Source: Escherichia phage EC121 | Sequence record: NC_054909.1 | Direction: 5' to 3' (one strand) | DNA length: 64,000 nucleotides | Shown here: positions 5,957 to 53,162 of the stretch, piece after piece | Layout of the letters: each line of letters starts with the position of its first letter | Numbering within the stretch: the stretch's first letter is position 1 | The notes under the pieces: model-generated | The model's input: the letters and a program-made list of their open reading frames with translations, nothing else | Told to the model about the DNA's origin: nothing | Databases searched by the model: none | Made by a program: the position numbers and the translations under genes

Positions 5957-6445
5957 TTATGCATAGAGAGCTTTGCTATAGTGTTTAATCCAGCTTTCAG
6001 GAATGACTTTGTATGTTCCTAAAAATACCACATTATACAGCTTAACACCGTCTTCTACCCACTGATCGGTAATGTATGCGCACATAGCACGAGTATAAAC
6101 AGCCAAACCATCATCTTTGATAAATTTAAATTCACAAGGAGCAATGAACTTAATAGCCTGACCGAGTTTCCACTTAAAGTCTACACCTACATGCGAAGTA
6201 TCAATCGTTTCAATTCCTTTAGCAGGAACAGCTTTCAAAAACGCAGATTCAAGAAATTTCGCACGAACATAGCCAAACTGAGGTTTAGACTTTCCATCTT
6301 TAGGAATGATACGCACTTTTACTTCAGAATCTTCATCTTTAACGCCGTGTTTAAGCTGAATGCTTACAATTTCGACCAATTTTCCTGCTGCTTTAGAACG
6401 GGATTTATCAGATACACGAGCAATTTCACCAATATTAATAATCAT
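5957..6445 (-). CDS. hypothetical protein, paralog A of a tandem pair (motB-region)
   Basis: 162 aa; C-terminal CAYITDQWVEDGVKLYNVV matches CGWVTDQWIEDGVELLNVV in the next ORF. Confidence 0.55.
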   Translation of the reverse strand: MIINIGEIARVSDKSRSKAAGKLVEIVSIQLKHGVKDEDSEVKVRIIPKDGKSKPQFGYVRAKFLESAFLKAVPAKGIETIDTSHVGVDFKWKLGQAIKFIAPCEFKFIKDDGLAVYTRAMCAYITDQWVEDGVKLYNVVFLGTYKVIPESWIKHYSKALYA

Positions 6446-6521: not shown

Positions 6522-7007
6522 TTAATTCAAAATAGCTACCACTGCACTACGAGGTACTACGCTAAAATCACCTGCATGAACAACGTTCAGAAGTTCAACA
6601 CCATCTTCAATCCATTGGTCTGTTACCCAACCACAGACCGAAATAAATGGAGTCTTGATAGCTACTGCACGAGTCAAAAGGTCAGTAGGATCAACTTCTT
6701 TGAAGAGGATAAGCTCTGCTTCAAAGACTATAGTTTTAATTACTTCATCATTATCTAAGCGATGTGCTCGAATCACGTAAGCTTTATTCTTATCATACCA
6801 ATTACTTTTTGAAAAACTTTTAACCACAAACTCGCCTTCACCAAAAACACTAGTCAATGCTTTATAACCCAAATCTAGTTCAGTAGTTTTAATTTCAGTT
6901 TCAACCAGTTTGTAGGTTTTGCCAATTTCGATGGTCCGAGCAGTCATAAAGGTTTCCTTAATTTCTAATGGTTTAACAAGAGTGCCGTACATGCTTGCTA
7001 TATCCAT
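6522..7007 (-). CDS. hypothetical protein, paralog B of a tandem pair
   Basis: 161 aa; shares C-terminal motif with 5957-6445. Confidence 0.55.
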   Translation of the reverse strand: MDIASMYGTLVKPLEIKETFMTARTIEIGKTYKLVETEIKTTELDLGYKALTSVFGEGEFVVKSFSKSNWYDKNKAYVIRAHRLDNDEVIKTIVFEAELILFKEVDPTDLLTRAVAIKTPFISVCGWVTDQWIEDGVELLNVVHAGDFSVVPRSAVVAILN

Positions 7008-7067
7008 ATCAAATATTTTATCTATAGGATTTGGGGGTGTATTCAGGATTATAATTAAATTTCATAA

Positions 7068-21800: not shown

Positions 21801-22643
21801 TTAATCAACTGCTATTGGATGAATAGCATTAAACTTATGAAACGCTTCTGATTTTTCTTTGCGCGAAACACACATGCGAAGAACTTTTAATGGCTCGTCT
21901 TCTTCACCCAACGATTTTCTCTTTTCGATATTCGATGTTTTCCAACGAGCTTGCTCTGGAAACTCTCTATTGATTTGCTCAAGAGCTCTATTATGTTTTG
22001 AATTACTACGAATTGAACTACATCCGCCTGGAGCTTGTGCTTTTCCAGATACAACCAGATATTTGAACAAGGCCAAATGCGGATAACCTTGATTAATTAA
22101 ATTGAGAAATGCATACATATCTTCGCATAAATCAATTTTTCCATACCCAATTTGTTCTGTCGTAAGTTTTCCAAGGTCATACCATGTATTCGTGAATCCA
22201 TATGAATTTTCACGATAATTACCCCAAGATGAAGTAATTTTAAAAATTGGTAGACGAGCATGGCCATGATAATATCCGCAATCCATGGCATCCTCAACAT
22301 ATTGAATCAATTCATAGAACTGTTCACGAGTTAATTGATTAATTTTATCTACACAGCGACGATCATCTTTCTTTCGCATTGAACTCATACGAATAGTAGT
22401 ATCATCGTCAATCATCCAAATTCGTTGACCTGCATACATATCAGTAATTGCTTTACGAGTACCAGCAATTCCATTGACATCATCAGGAATAGTTATAATT
22501 TTAGCTCTAGACCCATAAGCGTCATAATAAGCTTTTTCTTCGTGTTTACGTACTACAATATGAGGTTCATAATCAGATGGAAACATATCAAGGGCAGAAA
22601 CTGCCCCGACACGCTGATAACTTGGAATTACGAATTGAATCAT
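21801..22643 (-). CDS. GT-A fold glycosyltransferase at the beta-glucosyltransferase locus
   Basis: 280 aa; VIPSYQR start and IDDDT (DxD) motif; unlike recalled T4 beta-gt; sits between uvsX and gene 42. Confidence 0.6.
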   Translation of the reverse strand: MIQFVIPSYQRVGAVSALDMFPSDYEPHIVVRKHEEKAYYDAYGSRAKIITIPDDVNGIAGTRKAITDMYAGQRIWMIDDDTTIRMSSMRKKDDRRCVDKINQLTREQFYELIQYVEDAMDCGYYHGHARLPIFKITSSWGNYRENSYGFTNTWYDLGKLTTEQIGYGKIDLCEDMYAFLNLINQGYPHLALFKYLVVSGKAQAPGGCSSIRSNSKHNRALEQINREFPEQARWKTSNIEKRKSLGEEDEPLKVLRMCVSRKEKSEAFHKFNAIHPIAVD

Positions 22644-23281
22644 TTAAGTGCCTTACATTTGTCAAAATGGTATCTTGTCATATTTGGCCCACGTCCTTTT
22701 AGTCCGCAATGCGGACATATTTTTTCTATCAAATTATGAGGTTTTCCTTTACGATTTTTAGACATCGTTTCTTTAATTATTTTAGCTTTTTCTACGCCAA
22801 AAATTTCTTCATAAGTTTTACCAGAATTTTCCTTGGCTCGATTTATAATTCCATATGCCTGCTCATTTTTACCATACATTGGATTACCTTCGCCTTTCAT
22901 TCTTTTAGAATGATCAGGACGCTTGATTCCACGAAAGGCATTTCCGCACTTATATCTTTCTTCTGGAGATAGTTTTTTACCGTACATTCCATTTAATTTG
23001 CCTGGAAAACTTCCTCCCCATGCTTCATTCTTTAAATTATATGAATCCGGACAATTAGCAGCATCTAAACAAGTTAAAATAATTTCTTCAACCTGTCTAA
23101 ACATTGGTCCTTCATATAATATTTCTTTATTAAAGGATTTTATTCCATATTTCTTTTTAGCATGTTGCCAAACTACACCCGAACCATCATAATTCGGGTT
23201 GTGACCATCATGACTTCCTATATACCACTTTTTAGTTTTAGGATGTTTATACTTATAAACATGTGGCACATTTACTTCCAT
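22640..23281 (-). CDS. free-standing GIY-YIG homing endonuclease (Seg-like)
   Basis: 213 aa; VYKYKH...KWYIGS motif, repeated NUMOD-like segments (NPMYGK), C-terminal CPHCG...C zinc finger; paralog of 42362-43192. Confidence 0.7.
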   Translation of the reverse strand: MEVNVPHVYKYKHPKTKKWYIGSHDGHNPNYDGSGVVWQHAKKKYGIKSFNKEILYEGPMFRQVEEIILTCLDAANCPDSYNLKNEAWGGSFPGKLNGMYGKKLSPEERYKCGNAFRGIKRPDHSKRMKGEGNPMYGKNEQAYGIINRAKENSGKTYEEIFGVEKAKIIKETMSKNRKGKPHNLIEKICPHCGLKGRGPNMTRYHFDKCKALK

Positions 23282-24012
23282 TTTCCAGTATAATCCTTTT
23301 TAGCAATATGAGTCTCACCGGTGTTCCACCAATGGTCAACTAAATAAAACTGATTTTCGTACACATGAAGACTTCCAACGTTCCATATAATAGAACCTGC
23401 TTTATATTGCCGCGATGGGTCGCCTGCATTCAAATCAGATACTAATTTATCTAGTACGTATTTTTGCCAAGCATAATCATTACGATAGCCTGCCCAGCAA
23501 TCATTGCTTCTCATGCTAACAACCGCATTGACTTTCTTATCACGAATCAGGTACTGTACTGTATTAGTACACATGAAATCTGACATACCATCTTTATTGT
23601 AGTCAAATTGCATGGATGGACGAGTATAAATCATGATACCACGTCGAGAATCAGGATTTTGACCAAGTTCAGCTAAACACATATCATACTGGGCATAGTT
23701 ATTTTCTGACCAAATAGCCCAACCATAATTCGAGTTAATTTCGCCTTTAGAAGATGCTACCTGCTGCCAAATCTTTGGTGTTTCACCTGGAATATCTTTA
23801 ACAAACAAGCTCTTAGATTTATACCATTCAAGTTCGCGCTGAATGTATTCATCATTAAGAGCGCCAAAAATAAACGGTTCATCTGCTATAAATGATGCGC
23901 CAATAATTTCAATAGTTTTAACGCCAGTTTTATCAACTACGAAATCTTTTTCTTTTAATGCAAGCCCCAAATGAAGACGGATTTCTTCAACTGTCATAGA
24001 GTCACTAATCAT
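23272..24012 (-). CDS. 42: dCMP hydroxymethylase gp42
   Basis: 246 aa; near-identical to recalled T4 gp42. Confidence 0.96.
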   Translation of the reverse strand: MISDSMTVEEIRLHLGLALKEKDFVVDKTGVKTIEIIGASFIADEPFIFGALNDEYIQRELEWYKSKSLFVKDIPGETPKIWQQVASSKGEINSNYGWAIWSENNYAQYDMCLAELGQNPDSRRGIMIYTRPSMQFDYNKDGMSDFMCTNTVQYLIRDKKVNAVVSMRSNDCWAGYRNDYAWQKYVLDKLVSDLNAGDPSRQYKAGSIIWNVGSLHVYENQFYLVDHWWNTGETHIAKKDYTGKWK

Positions 24013-24019
24013 TTAAACC

Positions 24020-24169
24020 TCAATTGATACATTCATATTTAACTTGTAACAGTAATAAACCCCACCCTATGATAAGAGTTGGAATCATAGCAGGAACTGT
24101 TACGCTATAGTATATACTTATTATAACCATCAAGATTAAAAGCAACACTGCTATAATTTTGCTTTTCAT
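24020..24169 (-). CDS. small membrane protein
   Basis: 49-aa hydrophobic ORF not in the track; its ATG overlaps the imm stop in an ATGA arrangement. Confidence 0.45.
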   Translation of the reverse strand: MKSKIIAVLLLILMVIISIYYSVTVPAMIPTLIIGWGLLLLQVKYECIN

Positions 24170-24417
24170 TCCTTCTCTCTGATGATAATTACCTGATTTG
24201 GTTGTGCAGACTTTTTAGTTTCACCCACAATTGACCAAATAAATGTAATAAACCAACCAATAATTGACCAGTTAAACAGTAAAGATGTGAAAAAGATTCC
24301 TACTGTCGATTTTGACCCACGCATCAAGGCGATAAACCATGGAAGCATGTATATAATAATAGCCAACACACCTGAAACTAAAACCATAAAAATTGAACCT
24401 GCTACTAAAGTTTCCAT
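24166..24417 (-). CDS. imm: immunity protein Imm (superinfection exclusion)
   Basis: 83-aa polytopic membrane protein; size, position and sequence as recalled for T4 Imm. Confidence 0.85.
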   Translation of the reverse strand: METLVAGSIFMVLVSGVLAIIIYMLPWFIALMRGSKSTVGIFFTSLLFNWSIIGWFITFIWSIVGETKKSAQPNQVIIIREKE

Positions 24418-24424
24418 GTTTTCC

Positions 24425-24805
24425 TCACTTAGTCAAATTTTTTACACATGAATTATAAGAATTCACTACATACTCCATCGGAGCATTTTTACCAGTACGC
24501 CATTGGTAATTATTAGCCCAATTAGCCCAAATTTCGGCGCAGTAATTTTCAATTTTTTCTTCGCGTGTAATTACATCCGAATTACGATATGCTTGAGCAG
24601 ATTCATCTGGACGAATAGCTTCGTCAAAATTCGCCTGCATTTGTTCGACTGTTTGCTTTGGAGCTTCTTTATAACACTTGACATTAGGATTATAAAATTT
24701 GCTTGAACAGTTTACAATTTTTCCTACATCAGACTGATTTACTACCGGTCCTTGAGCTACACAACCAGTAAGACCTAATGCAATAACCAAAATAGCGATT
24801 TTCAT
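24425..24805 (-). CDS. predicted lipoprotein
   Basis: 126 aa; signal peptide with lipobox LTGC. Confidence 0.5.
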   Translation of the reverse strand: MKIAILVIALGLTGCVAQGPVVNQSDVGKIVNCSSKFYNPNVKCYKEAPKQTVEQMQANFDEAIRPDESAQAYRNSDVITREEKIENYCAEIWANWANNYQWRTGKNAPMEYVVNSYNSCVKNLTK

Positions 24806-24815
24806 AATAATTTCC

Positions 24816-25052
24816 TCAAATGCAAGTAGTAATTACTCCAGTAGTGCTTATGCAGGTATTACCCATTTGCACACCTAAAGATCCATTTGTATTCACATGA
24901 AGATTATCATCAATTTTAACTGATATTTTACCATTAGTGTGAATAACGGTGCTAGATTTAATCACAGGTTGAGTATCATTTTCAACACTAACAAATGGAA
25001 CTGCTACTAATGCAACTAAACAAACTGCTAAACATCCCATAACAATTTTCAT
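24816..25052 (-). CDS. small secreted/membrane protein
   Basis: 78 aa from ATG at 25052 (track start is TTG); hydrophobic N-terminus; driven by cassette copy B. Confidence 0.5.
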   Translation of the reverse strand: MKIVMGCLAVCLVALVAVPFVSVENDTQPVIKSSTVIHTNGKISVKIDDNLHVNTNGSLGVQMGNTCISTTGVITTCI

Positions 25053-25150
25053 TTTATTCTCCAAATCTGTATCAGTAGTTGATAGTTGTATAGTACCACA
25101 GAAGAACAGTCTTGTAAACAGTTTTGTGAAAATTTTTTAGGGAATTCTAA
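25053..25150 (-). repeat. promoter-leader cassette copy B
   Basis: CCCTAAAAAATTTTCACAAAACTGTTTAC, 17 nt, GGTACTATACAACTATCAACTACTGATACAGATTTGGAGAATAAAAATG; homologous to copies at 5.9 and 53.1 kb. Confidence 0.6.
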
Positions 25151-25202
25151 AGGTCCAGAATCATCTGTTTTTCATAAGTATAGATTTATATTACTTGTAT
25201 GA

Positions 25203-25228
25203 AAAAGGGACCCGGAGGTCCCTAGATT
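25203..25228 (-). terminator. intrinsic terminator after gene 43
   Basis: GGGACC-UCCG-GGUCCC followed by U-run on the minus-strand RNA. Confidence 0.6.
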
Positions 25229-25235
25229 TATTCTA

Positions 25236-27932
25236 TCAGCCAAACAGGAAGTCTAACGAAGCTTTTTCTTCATAGTCCATACCAGCCGATTCACACATGC
25301 CTGCAAGCGGTTTAACAAACGATTTTTGGAACAAAGTTGAGTAGTCAATCCAAGACAGTACATCAGAACGAATTTCTTTTGGAAGTTCTGTACCCGACGG
25401 CCAAGCAATGCACTTGTCACCAAATGGATTTCCCTCACGTAATGGAAGAACCATTACTTTATTTCCATCCAAAATTGGAGCTACACCCAGACCACTAACA
25501 GCTCGACGATAAGTTAGCACCCCACGAATATGGAACGGGCATTTAAATCCTGGCCAACCTTTATCATCATATTTCGCTATATCGTTCGCAGTTTTTACTT
25601 CAGCAATAACTTTATAGTCAAGTTGACGATATTCTTTCTCAAAGTTCTTATAATATTCTTGAACAGACTCTTCGCCTTCTTGAAGAATACGACGGATACT
25701 TTCTTCAAGAGCTTCTTGGACCGCTTTAGGCGTTGAACTCTGCTGAGTTTCCATACCCATGATTTTTAGATGCGGTTCAGCAAATCGCTTATCTTCCATA
25801 TCATAAACGTTCAGAGCATAACGCTTTTTCGCTTTCCAAAATCCACCAACGCCCTTTGAACCAAGTGGAGGGCAAGAAATAGCTTCACGGTCCATATGCA
25901 TCAGATGCTCGCGGTTATTCATATAATCACATAACTCACGATATGCAACATCAATCATAGGTTCCATCTTTTTCTTACCGAACTGATTCATGAATTCAAC
26001 TAAATCGTTCTGCTCTTTGAATCGGTCAAGACCAACTTTTTCAATAACTTTATCTACACAAACATATACCGAATCAGTATCACCTGCTGCGATGAAATCT
26101 TCGCCATTAGTTCCACATACTTTATTCAGATACTCATTAATTTTACGAGCAATCCACTGAATACCGACTTGGCCGAAAATTGTGATAGCAGTAGCATTTC
26201 GCAAATCATAGTAGCGGAAATGAATATTACCAAGAGCACCGTAAAGGCTGTTAATAAGAATTTTACGGTTCAGCTGATTTGTATTAGCAAGTGTAGCCGC
26301 TTTTTCACATTCTTCAATCAAACTATTGAGAACAGATTCAGTATAATTCGATAGTTCATTTAAGAAATCATCACTGAACTTAACATATCGTTTAACTTCA
26401 GGTTTAGTTGAACAAGACCCTGCGCCTTTCATAATAATCTTTTTAATAGCTTCGGCATTCATTTCTTCGGCGAACATTTTCTTTTTCCAGTCTTTACGCT
26501 GGAAAAATACTTTAGCGATTTCCTTTGGAATGATACCTTCTTGATGCTTATCATACATCCATCCATTCGGAGAACAAGAATATTCATCACTCGGTTTAGG
26601 AGCTGTTCCTGCGATATATTCATGAATTGGATGAACTTTAAACTGACCACGAATAGTCTCAGGACTAATGTTAACCTGACGAATAATGCTAGGATACAGA
26701 GACGTCAAGTCAAAACTCATAATATATCGACGAGCAATTGGTTTAGGTTCAAACACAAATGCACCCGGAAAACTTTGTTTAACGTGCGAACCTTGTTGAG
26801 GAATAACCTTATGTTCACCTTTCAATGAGTTAAAAATAATAGCATCCCAAGTTTTAATAGGACTCATTACACCAGAAAAAGGCATTTTAGCGTAATAAGA
26901 CATACTTAAAACTAGATCGATAAACCCGCGAATTTTATCAATTGCTTGAACTGATTCTACGTCAATGATGTTATAACTGATATATCGTTGATGATTAGTC
27001 TCACGAAGTTTATTAATAGGACCATCGTACGGTAATTTACCTTTTTTGGTTTCATGCTGAGCAACTGATTCCAAAGAGAATGACGGCAAATTAGTAAATG
27101 CGAATTTCTTATACAAATCTAAATAATCAAGAATAGATACGCCATCAATAGAATAAATTTCTTTGCTACCGTACATATTTTGAATTAGTTTAGATTTTAC
27201 TCGACCGATTGGAGAGAAACGTTTCATACTGCGTTCACCGAGAACCATTTTAACGCGATTCATGATATACGGAACGTCAAATCCCTCAATATTCCAACCA
27301 GTAAAAATAGCAGGTCGTTTCTGTTCCCAAAGATTGATATATTCCATGAGCATATCGCGCTCATTATCGAATGGCATATAAATTACTCGGTCAAGAATTT
27401 CTTGAGGAACTTCATCACCACCTTCACAGTCAAGCTTAGCAGCTAACTTTGCGTCCCATTTTGATACTGAACCATACATTGAATTCAAAAGGTCGAAAAC
27501 ATAAAAACGATCATCAATTGAATCGTAATGAGTGATAGCATCAATTTCATATTCAGCTTTCATTGGGTCAGGAAATTTATCACCAGTAACCTCAATGTCA
27601 CAGTTAGCTACACGAACAAATTTTCGGTCATAAACAATTTCTGAACCGTATGTATCACTGATATAAGCGAGTTTAAAATCGTTCATACCGAGAGCTTCGA
27701 GACCGATGTCTTCCATTCGTTTCATCCAATCTCGAGCATCTTTCATTGATGGAAATTTTTGAGGAGCGCAGTTTTTACCATAGATGTCTTTGTACTTTGA
27801 CTCTTCCTTACAATGTCTAAACATAGTTGGAAGATATTCTACTTCACGAGTACGTTCCTTTCCGTTTTCATCAATATAACGTTCAACAATGTTATTTCCG
27901 ACTGTTTCGATAGAGATATAAAATTCTTTCAT
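25236..27932 (-). CDS. 43: DNA polymerase gp43 (family B)
   Basis: 898 aa; matches recalled T4 gp43. Confidence 0.98.
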   Translation of the reverse strand: MKEFYISIETVGNNIVERYIDENGKERTREVEYLPTMFRHCKEESKYKDIYGKNCAPQKFPSMKDARDWMKRMEDIGLEALGMNDFKLAYISDTYGSEIVYDRKFVRVANCDIEVTGDKFPDPMKAEYEIDAITHYDSIDDRFYVFDLLNSMYGSVSKWDAKLAAKLDCEGGDEVPQEILDRVIYMPFDNERDMLMEYINLWEQKRPAIFTGWNIEGFDVPYIMNRVKMVLGERSMKRFSPIGRVKSKLIQNMYGSKEIYSIDGVSILDYLDLYKKFAFTNLPSFSLESVAQHETKKGKLPYDGPINKLRETNHQRYISYNIIDVESVQAIDKIRGFIDLVLSMSYYAKMPFSGVMSPIKTWDAIIFNSLKGEHKVIPQQGSHVKQSFPGAFVFEPKPIARRYIMSFDLTSLYPSIIRQVNISPETIRGQFKVHPIHEYIAGTAPKPSDEYSCSPNGWMYDKHQEGIIPKEIAKVFFQRKDWKKKMFAEEMNAEAIKKIIMKGAGSCSTKPEVKRYVKFSDDFLNELSNYTESVLNSLIEECEKAATLANTNQLNRKILINSLYGALGNIHFRYYDLRNATAITIFGQVGIQWIARKINEYLNKVCGTNGEDFIAAGDTDSVYVCVDKVIEKVGLDRFKEQNDLVEFMNQFGKKKMEPMIDVAYRELCDYMNNREHLMHMDREAISCPPLGSKGVGGFWKAKKRYALNVYDMEDKRFAEPHLKIMGMETQQSSTPKAVQEALEESIRRILQEGEESVQEYYKNFEKEYRQLDYKVIAEVKTANDIAKYDDKGWPGFKCPFHIRGVLTYRRAVSGLGVAPILDGNKVMVLPLREGNPFGDKCIAWPSGTELPKEIRSDVLSWIDYSTLFQKSFVKPLAGMCESAGMDYEEKASLDFLFG

Positions 27933-53068: not shown

Positions 53069-53150
53069 TTTATTCTCCAAATCTATATCAGTTGATAGTT
53101 GTATAGTACCATAAAGCTTTATGCTTGTAAACAGTTTTGTGAAAAATTTT
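53069..53150 (-). repeat. promoter-leader cassette copy C
   Basis: TTTTTCACAAAACTGTTTAC, 17 nt, GGTACTATACAACTATCAACTGATATAGATTTGGAGAATAAAATG. Confidence 0.6.
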
Positions 53151-53162
53151 TGAAATAAAAAA

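Follow-up and report, generated by a model that had tools for sequence, protein, structure and literature searches.

In T4, the periplasmic protein Spackle inhibits the gp5 lysozyme. DNA translocation from an incoming phage is blocked by the inner-membrane protein Imm, which binds that phage's tape-measure protein gp29; two residues of Imm, R33 and W50, are important for exclusion (preprint 10.64898/2026.03.06.709160). The product of T4 imm.1 is early at both the RNA and the protein level, as is Sp (supplement, PMC9697503). At the level of genome organization, genes of T4-type phages are shuffled by way of PeSL promoter-terminator cassettes (Arbiol et al. 2010; Comeau et al. 2014; PMC2839356, PMC4122927). 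Here, we compare with these systems the imm region of Escherichia phage EC121 (NC_054909.1), within a stretch of 64,000 nucleotides, hereafter the window, that belongs to a Tequatrovirus (T4-like) genome. An earlier note on this DNA had described a cluster of envelope proteins around imm and, naming only imm and imm.1 for this place in T4, had suggested that the additional genes could extend superinfection exclusion or mask receptors. The features of the interval, with window coordinates, are the following.

25236..27932, minus strand: gene 43 (DNA polymerase), the upstream neighbour, given as context
25206..25223, minus strand: terminator hairpin, from the sequence by hairpin scan
25090..25118, minus strand: early-type sigma-70 promoter-like site, from a motif scan
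24816..25052, minus strand: ORF78, 78 aa, phrog_4189; accessory gene that T4 lacks
24806..25038, no strand assigned: segment of 233 bp missing in T4 and PST, from alignment
24425..24805, minus strand: imm.1, 126-aa lipoprotein precursor, DUF5481 / phrog_1754; ortholog of T4 imm.1
24166..24417, minus strand: imm, 83 aa, PF14373 / phrog_1039
24020..24169, minus strand: 42.1, 49 aa, phrog_3610; its start overlaps the imm stop
23272..24012, minus strand: gene 42 (dCMP hydroxymethylase), 7 nt downstream of 42.1, given as context

The minus-strand interval from gene 43 to gene 42 is tightly packed with ORF78, imm.1, imm and 42.1, the four envelope ORFs of the earlier note, all of which are present on this strand at the positions given there. 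The successive gaps through to gene 42 are 10, 7, −4 (ATGA) and 7 nt, and each of the four small-ORF starts is preceded by a Shine-Dalgarno sequence. Each ORF matches a PHROG family (phrog_4189, 1754, 1039 and 3610; E 1e-26 to 1e-44), and these matches, along with the pN/pS values and the invariant residues of 42.1 described below, argue that the four are real genes rather than chance reading frames. NCBIfam and Rfam searches over the region yielded nothing relevant. A megablast search with positions 23900-25300 matched 517 phage records, with best identities of 98-99%; in 496 records the match spanned 80% or more of the query. From each search, 40-45 rows spread over the results were inspected individually, and seven lineages were covered. 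The four-gene block is standard for T4-like phages: it is real, ordinary and already catalogued, its genes being annotated in hundreds of phage genomes, mostly as hypothetical proteins, and Imm is the only one of the four products with a known function. Based on the gene packing and the promoter scan, we infer that ORF78, imm.1, imm and 42.1 are read as a single early transcript. Taken as a whole, the locus is very probably the imm region typical of a T2/T6-like Tequatrovirus, with envelope genes headed by a cassette and with Imm.1 as a proposed exclusion or protection accessory. The main value of the present analysis lies in correcting the record: of the three genes taken for extras, two are present in T4 itself.

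By homology, the 83-aa ORF is the superinfection immunity protein Imm, the ortholog of T4 Imm. It matches PF14373 with 58.2 bits (cut-off 27.9) and phrog_1039 with E 2.3e-32, differs from T4 Imm by 2 substitutions with R33 and W50 kept, and shows a pN/pS of 0.03-0.29 against other phages. The earlier note was right both in identifying imm and in assigning its neighbours to the envelope. An in-frame upstream ATG in T4 that gives rise to a 94-aa Imm is absent here (window 24417-24450 compared with positions 6625-6658 of the T4 stretch). The 94-aa product is the form of T4 Imm used for cryo-EM (preprint 10.64898/2026.03.06.709160). Because the upstream ATG is missing in this phage, the 83-aa Imm is supported as the conserved product.

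The lipoprotein that the earlier note took for an extra gene beside imm.1 turned out to be imm.1 itself. The 126-aa ORF matches PF17578 (DUF5481) with 237.6 bits (cut-off 27) and phrog_1754 over its full length (E 3e-44), and it is collinear with T4 imm.1 at ~98% identity. The gene lies directly upstream of imm, with a 7-nt gap in this phage, and has the same position in T4, T2, RB27, PST and RB69. Its LTGC lipobox was read correctly. The N-terminus, MK-IAILVIALG-LTG/C15, combines a basic n-region with a hydrophobic h-region, as in lipoproteins, and the lipobox ILVIALGLTG/C conforms to a PROSITE PS51257-type pattern ([LVI][ASTVI][GAS]C, with the Cys within residues 15-35), with Cys15 as the residue predicted to be modified. 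The +2 residue is Val in this phage and Gly in RB69. Lipoproteins without Asp at +2 go to the outer membrane; since the residue here is Val rather than Asp, Imm.1 would be lipidated at Cys15 and sorted to the inner leaflet of the outer membrane.

Within Tequatrovirus, Imm.1 is tightly constrained, with a pN/pS of 0-0.09 against other phages. In the closest 30 of the 40 listed records, which include Escherichia, Shigella, Yersinia and other host isolates, it is 97.6-100% identical. Altogether, 500 records carry Imm.1 at no less than 95% identity and 155 carry the Mosigvirus form at ~33%. The record counts for Imm match these: 500 at no less than 80% (497 of them at no less than 95%) and 156 at 60-80%. 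Across T4-like phages, lipoproteins of phrog_1754 adjoin imm or gene 43 in seven lineages. The gene order is 43 - imm - 42.1 - lipoprotein in Dhakavirus and Gaprivervirus and lipoprotein - imm - 42 in Moonvirus and a Klebsiella T4-like phage, and in Kagamiyamavirus the lipoprotein gene directly follows gene 43. These proteins of other lineages are longer than Imm.1 (138-167 aa) and fall into phrog_1754 together with it (E 1e-15 to 1e-52). Invariant positions of the joint alignment include the lipobox Gly (G14), Y38, C89 and C120, and nine of ten sequences have the lipobox Cys15. The homology of the short and long lipoproteins is based on this shared PHROG membership and the invariant residues, not on hhalign. 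With the signal peptides removed, hhalign gave only an E value of 7.9e-5 over a 14-residue motif, and with the signal peptides included, the match was confined to residues 1-30. The invariance of C89 and C120 throughout the family makes it probable that a Cys89-Cys120 disulfide holds the periplasmic domain of Imm.1 together.

The Imm.1 family looks small and confined to T4-like phages. A single-sequence search among 1.84 billion representatives recovered only 6 proteins. A profile built from 10 diverse members recovered 28 clusters, most of them on long contigs, several of ~165-175 kb; the source names were those of phage proteins only (EcS1, a Serratia phage), and none of the 28 clusters gave a function. 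In the structural model of Imm.1 (pLDDT 64.5), a C-terminal helical hairpin is confidently predicted, and a fold search produced no significant match in the PDB or BFVD. In general, no family or fold that would give a function for Imm.1, 42.1 or ORF78 was found. A literature search returned no paper on DUF5481 and a single phage paper with the name imm.1, where its role is a matter of speculation and "to be proven"; the main text of the CRISPRi-ART paper on T4 does not mention imm.1. The T4 RefSeq record (NC_000866; positions 6637-7014 of the stretch compared) labels imm.1 "iduronate sulfatase", which looks like an annotation error.

The last gene of the block, 42.1, belongs to phrog_3610 (E 1.6e-26) and, as the earlier note stated, is joined to imm by an ATGA overlap of stop and start (24166-24169). 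It was detected by tblastn in 750 phage records from five genera and has 12 positions that are invariant across these genera. Proteins of this family are 45-49 aa long and consist of two hydrophobic helices split by P-x-MIPT, followed by an end of the form Q-x-K-[YF]-x-C-x-N, which in this phage reads K-Y-E-C-I-N. The pN/pS against other phages is 0.27-0.53. The name 42.1 is used in the RB27 and RB14 annotations. T4 itself contains an intact 49-codon 42.1 (NC_000866 26227-26376), with 88% protein identity and the same ATGA overlap with imm. The earlier note's statement that T4 has only imm and imm.1 here was correct with respect to ORF78, which T4 lacks, and wrong with respect to 42.1. The RefSeq T4 record leaves this intact, conserved gene (positions 6228-6377 of the stretch compared) unannotated, which also looks like an annotation error.

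The ATGA overlap of imm and 42.1 is found in Tequatrovirus and Dhakavirus, and 42.1 follows imm in Gaprivervirus as well. In Mosigvirus and Kagamiyamavirus, 42.1 follows a SIS-domain gene (arabinose-5-phosphate isomerase-like) with a 4-nt overlap and with no imm adjacent. In the stretches compared, this overlapping pair occupies positions 1818-2593 in Mosigvirus G2285 and 1824-2593 in EcS1, where the SIS-domain gene is annotated as arabinose-5-phosphate isomerase; a membrane microprotein would thereby be translationally coupled to a cytoplasmic sugar isomerase. Because 42.1 also occurs without an adjacent imm, it is less closely linked to Imm than Imm.1 is.

ORF78 starts with the ATG at 25052, six bases downstream of a GGAG; the alternative TTG start at 25064 has no Shine-Dalgarno sequence. 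The protein consists of a hydrophobic N-terminus (residues 1-25) and a strand-rich C-terminal part of ~50 aa with Cys67 and Cys77. The earlier note described it as a signal-peptide protein. The hydrophobic N-terminus (at least 21 aa) is indeed there, but inspection by eye found no AxA-type cleavage site in it, so that a cleaved signal peptide does not follow; an uncleaved signal anchor may be just as likely. In the structural model (pLDDT 54.1), the C-terminal remainder is predicted at low confidence as short strands, and a PDB profile search returned only noise. The pN/pS is 0.36-0.60 against other phages, where the upper value comes from only 3 substitutions, and 0.36-0.45 against diverged alleles. 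Among phages, the N-terminal region (residues 1-21, 24990-25052) varies by insertions of a 7-residue CLVALAx unit, which give 78-, 85- and 89-aa variants; one of the length variants gains an L-A-A-C motif, and its UniRef name is "Lipoprotein".

The slot occupied by ORF78 is polymorphic, with three alleles: ORF78, a T2-type 83-aa ORF, and the empty state of T4 and PST. A tblastn search found ORF78 in 324 phage records. Because 295 of these matches are near full length, the ORF78-bearing slot is the commonest state among sequenced Tequatroviruses. In T2 and RB27, the slot holds an unrelated, non-membrane 83-aa ORF (phrog_18567), which was found in 38 records, in 31 of them at no less than 95% identity; T2 additionally carries a 35-aa ORF in the slot. 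In the T2 record AP018813, the product of this 83-aa ORF is named "tail tape measure protein", apparently in error. T4 and Yersinia phage PST lack window positions 24806-25038 (233 bp), a segment bounded by the similar ATGAAAAT start regions of ORF78 and imm.1. In the alignment, the 5'UTR of T4 imm.1 together with ATGAAAAT pairs with the corresponding region of ORF78 in this phage, its 5'UTR and start, rather than with what lies upstream of imm.1. This homology of the T4 imm.1 5'UTR to that of ORF78 shows that T4 lost ORF78 by a deletion between similar gene starts. In Shigella phage CT01, a remnant of ORF78 lies between duplicated copies of the promoter, the 5'UTR and the first 33 imm.1 codons (positions 1290-2046 of the stretch compared), an arrangement suggestive of a recombination intermediate in this polymorphic slot. 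The CT01 record annotates a 179-aa fusion ORF across the duplicated imm.1 segments and the ORF78 fragment.

The surroundings of the slot match a PeSL cassette. The stop codon of gene 43 is directly followed by the hairpin AGGGACC-TCCG-GGTCCCT and a T run (25223-25206). Downstream, the promoter-like site at 25118-25090 consists of TTTACA, a 17-nt spacer and TACTAT, with a TG before the −10 hexamer; the promoter upstream of the slot is conserved in T4, PST and T2. The segment 25053-25145 recurs in the window at 53069 (53069-53151), 51666, 5879, 40860 and 56850. These five copies, all in the same orientation, are 84-96% identical over 21-86 bp and fit the earlier description of the sequence upstream of ORF78 as a cassette copy; related phages have about 8 copies of the promoter segment per genome. 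A stem-loop terminator followed by a predicted early promoter, repetition and flanking indels are all found here. ORF78 is best explained as a cassette gene that the phage can do without, in the polymorphic slot downstream of the promoter.

The opposite flank of the block is also mosaic. A 213-aa ORF on the minus strand (22640-23281) that overlaps both the TAGT-type glucosyltransferase gene (21801-22643) and gene 42 encodes a homing endonuclease according to its match to phrog_314 (E 2e-31). The Pfam search was negative, and a GIY-YIG identity was not confirmed by it. The ORF is full length in only 76 phage records and absent from KMB23, T2 and RB27. Gene 42 is only 89-91% identical at the nucleotide level to its counterparts in these three phages, compared to 95-99% for imm and imm.1. 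This mosaic pattern around gene 42 could result from endonuclease-driven co-conversion.

The observations on the four genes can be combined into a simple model. Under this model, an early-promoter cassette located after the gene 43 terminator would head the run from ORF78 through imm.1, imm and 42.1 into gene 42. Imm.1 would be anchored in the outer membrane, display a largely helical domain of ~110 residues in the periplasm, and serve as an accessory, periplasm-facing part of an early envelope-protection or exclusion programme. This role is proposed because the gene adjoins imm in several lineages and, in RB69, lies with imm beside sp; such linkage across lineages suggests that Imm.1 and Imm share a role in exclusion. 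The target of Imm.1 would more likely be phage-specific than a host receptor, considering that the protein is nearly invariant within the genus and strongly diverged between genera with the common host E. coli. As for 42.1, it would be a helical-hairpin microprotein of the inner membrane whose translation is coupled to that of imm in three genera. A more elaborate variant, in which Imm.1 acts on the tail tip or tube at the inner face of the outer membrane as a third component alongside Spackle and Imm, and 42.1 modulates Imm, appears doubtful; if it were true, the genus-level divergence of Imm.1 would help set which phages are excluded. With the Imm-gp29 mechanism now described, Imm.1, whose gene is a conserved companion of imm, presents itself as an obvious candidate.

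Two alternative functions for the envelope genes are compatible with some of their properties. One is that they hide a receptor in the outer membrane and thereby extend exclusion, in the way that FhuA is masked by Llp of T5 and by Cor of T1 and phi80. Lipoprotein-based exclusion is an established kind (PMC9586334, PMC3952083), and Imm.1 is a predicted lipoprotein that is early in T4 and adjoins imm. However, the lipoprotein is not an addition to the T4 set, being T4 imm.1, and the protein encoded in the window has no match to Cor or Llp; its relatives match phrog_1119 only over residues 1-20 (E 0.014-0.059). T-even phages use different receptors (OmpC, Tsx, FadL and OmpF), with which a mask would be expected to vary, so that the near-identity of Imm.1 in the closest 30 of the 40 listed records, despite these differences, argues against a receptor-specific mask. 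The drop to 33% identity in RB69, a phage of the same host, is the pattern expected of a phage-side rather than a host-side partner, and we consider receptor masking improbable. The other alternative is that Imm.1 and the small membrane proteins control lysis or lysis inhibition, as a spanin-like lipoprotein with holin- or antiholin-like partners. A small outer-membrane lipoprotein and small membrane proteins are what the parts lists of spanins and holins contain, and the one- or two-helix proteins of the block, among them 42.1 with its two hydrophobic helices, resemble such parts. The T4 spanins and holin, however, are encoded at other loci, and T4 Imm.1 is early at the RNA and protein level whereas lysis genes are late. 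Moreover, the cluster is located behind an early promoter among replication genes, and no lysis family appears among its PHROG, Pfam or NCBIfam matches, which makes a lysis function highly improbable.

The main rival to the proposed accessory role is that the genes around imm are passengers without a functional relation to it: small membrane ORFs that share its early promoter and have inherited their position in a plastic region, but have roles of their own, for example in host-specific fitness or counter-defence. For ORF78 and 42.1, this is quite plausible: the ORF78 slot is empty in T4 and PST and differently filled in T2 and RB27, 42.1 lacks an adjacent imm in Mosigvirus and Kagamiyamavirus, and unrelated ORFs are known to accumulate in slots flanked by such cassettes (PMC2839356). 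Furthermore, plasmid-borne Imm acts alone (preprint 10.64898/2026.03.06.709160). Conversely, the imm.1-imm pair has stayed together in RB69, where it lies elsewhere in the genome beside sp, and the phrog_1754 lipoprotein stays beside imm through several rearrangements; the ATGA coupling of imm and 42.1, too, is kept in Tequatrovirus and Dhakavirus, and the gene order in Gaprivervirus. Weighing these lines of evidence, we regard the passenger explanation for the neighbours as a whole as possible, if somewhat short of probable, and continue to favour an exclusion-related role for Imm.1.

The comparison with T4 (NC_000866, 26.2-27.2 kb) bears most directly on the earlier note, which had proposed synteny with T4 as a check and had named orthologs of all four genes in T4, with established unrelated roles, as the finding that would speak against it. 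The order 43 - imm.1 - imm - (42.1) - 42, the strand, the promoter and the terminator are the same, and window positions 23280-24805 are collinear with T4 at 93.2% nucleotide identity (97.6% for imm alone). Three of the four genes have T4 orthologs, none of them with an established unrelated role, and ORF78 has no counterpart there. T4 differs in the absence of the 233 bp with ORF78, in the lack of a 42.1 annotation in RefSeq, and in the extra upstream ATG of its 94-aa Imm. T2 and RB27 share imm.1, imm, 42.1 and 42, the beta-glucosyl-HMC-alpha-glucosyltransferase gene downstream, and the same GAGGAAATTATT-ATG junction before imm.1; they differ in that the 83-aa ORF of phrog_18567 (along with the 35-aa ORF in T2) replaces ORF78. 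In RB69 (Mosigvirus), imm.1 is likewise followed by imm, and the LTGC lipobox, the YNPxxKxY and YRxS motifs and the two cysteines are conserved. In contrast to the present locus, the order there is 61.4 - imm.1 - imm - sp, at another locus directly beside spackle; Imm.1 is only 33% and Imm 65% identical, and the 42.1 homolog has remained close to gene 43, where it is coupled to a gene for a SIS-domain protein.

With the PeSL cassettes, the locus shares the stem-loop terminator followed by an early promoter, the genome-wide repeats, and the gain, loss and replacement of flanking genes. It differs in that the ends of the T4 deletion fall in two similar ORF starts, not in two complete cassettes, and in that a duplicated promoter segment is found only in CT01. 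Finally, Llp of T5 and Cor of T1 and phi80 have no homology to Imm.1 beyond the signal peptide, and the conservation of Imm.1 does not follow receptor use; as small, early, periplasm-facing phage lipoproteins, they nonetheless offer a possible working model for Imm.1.
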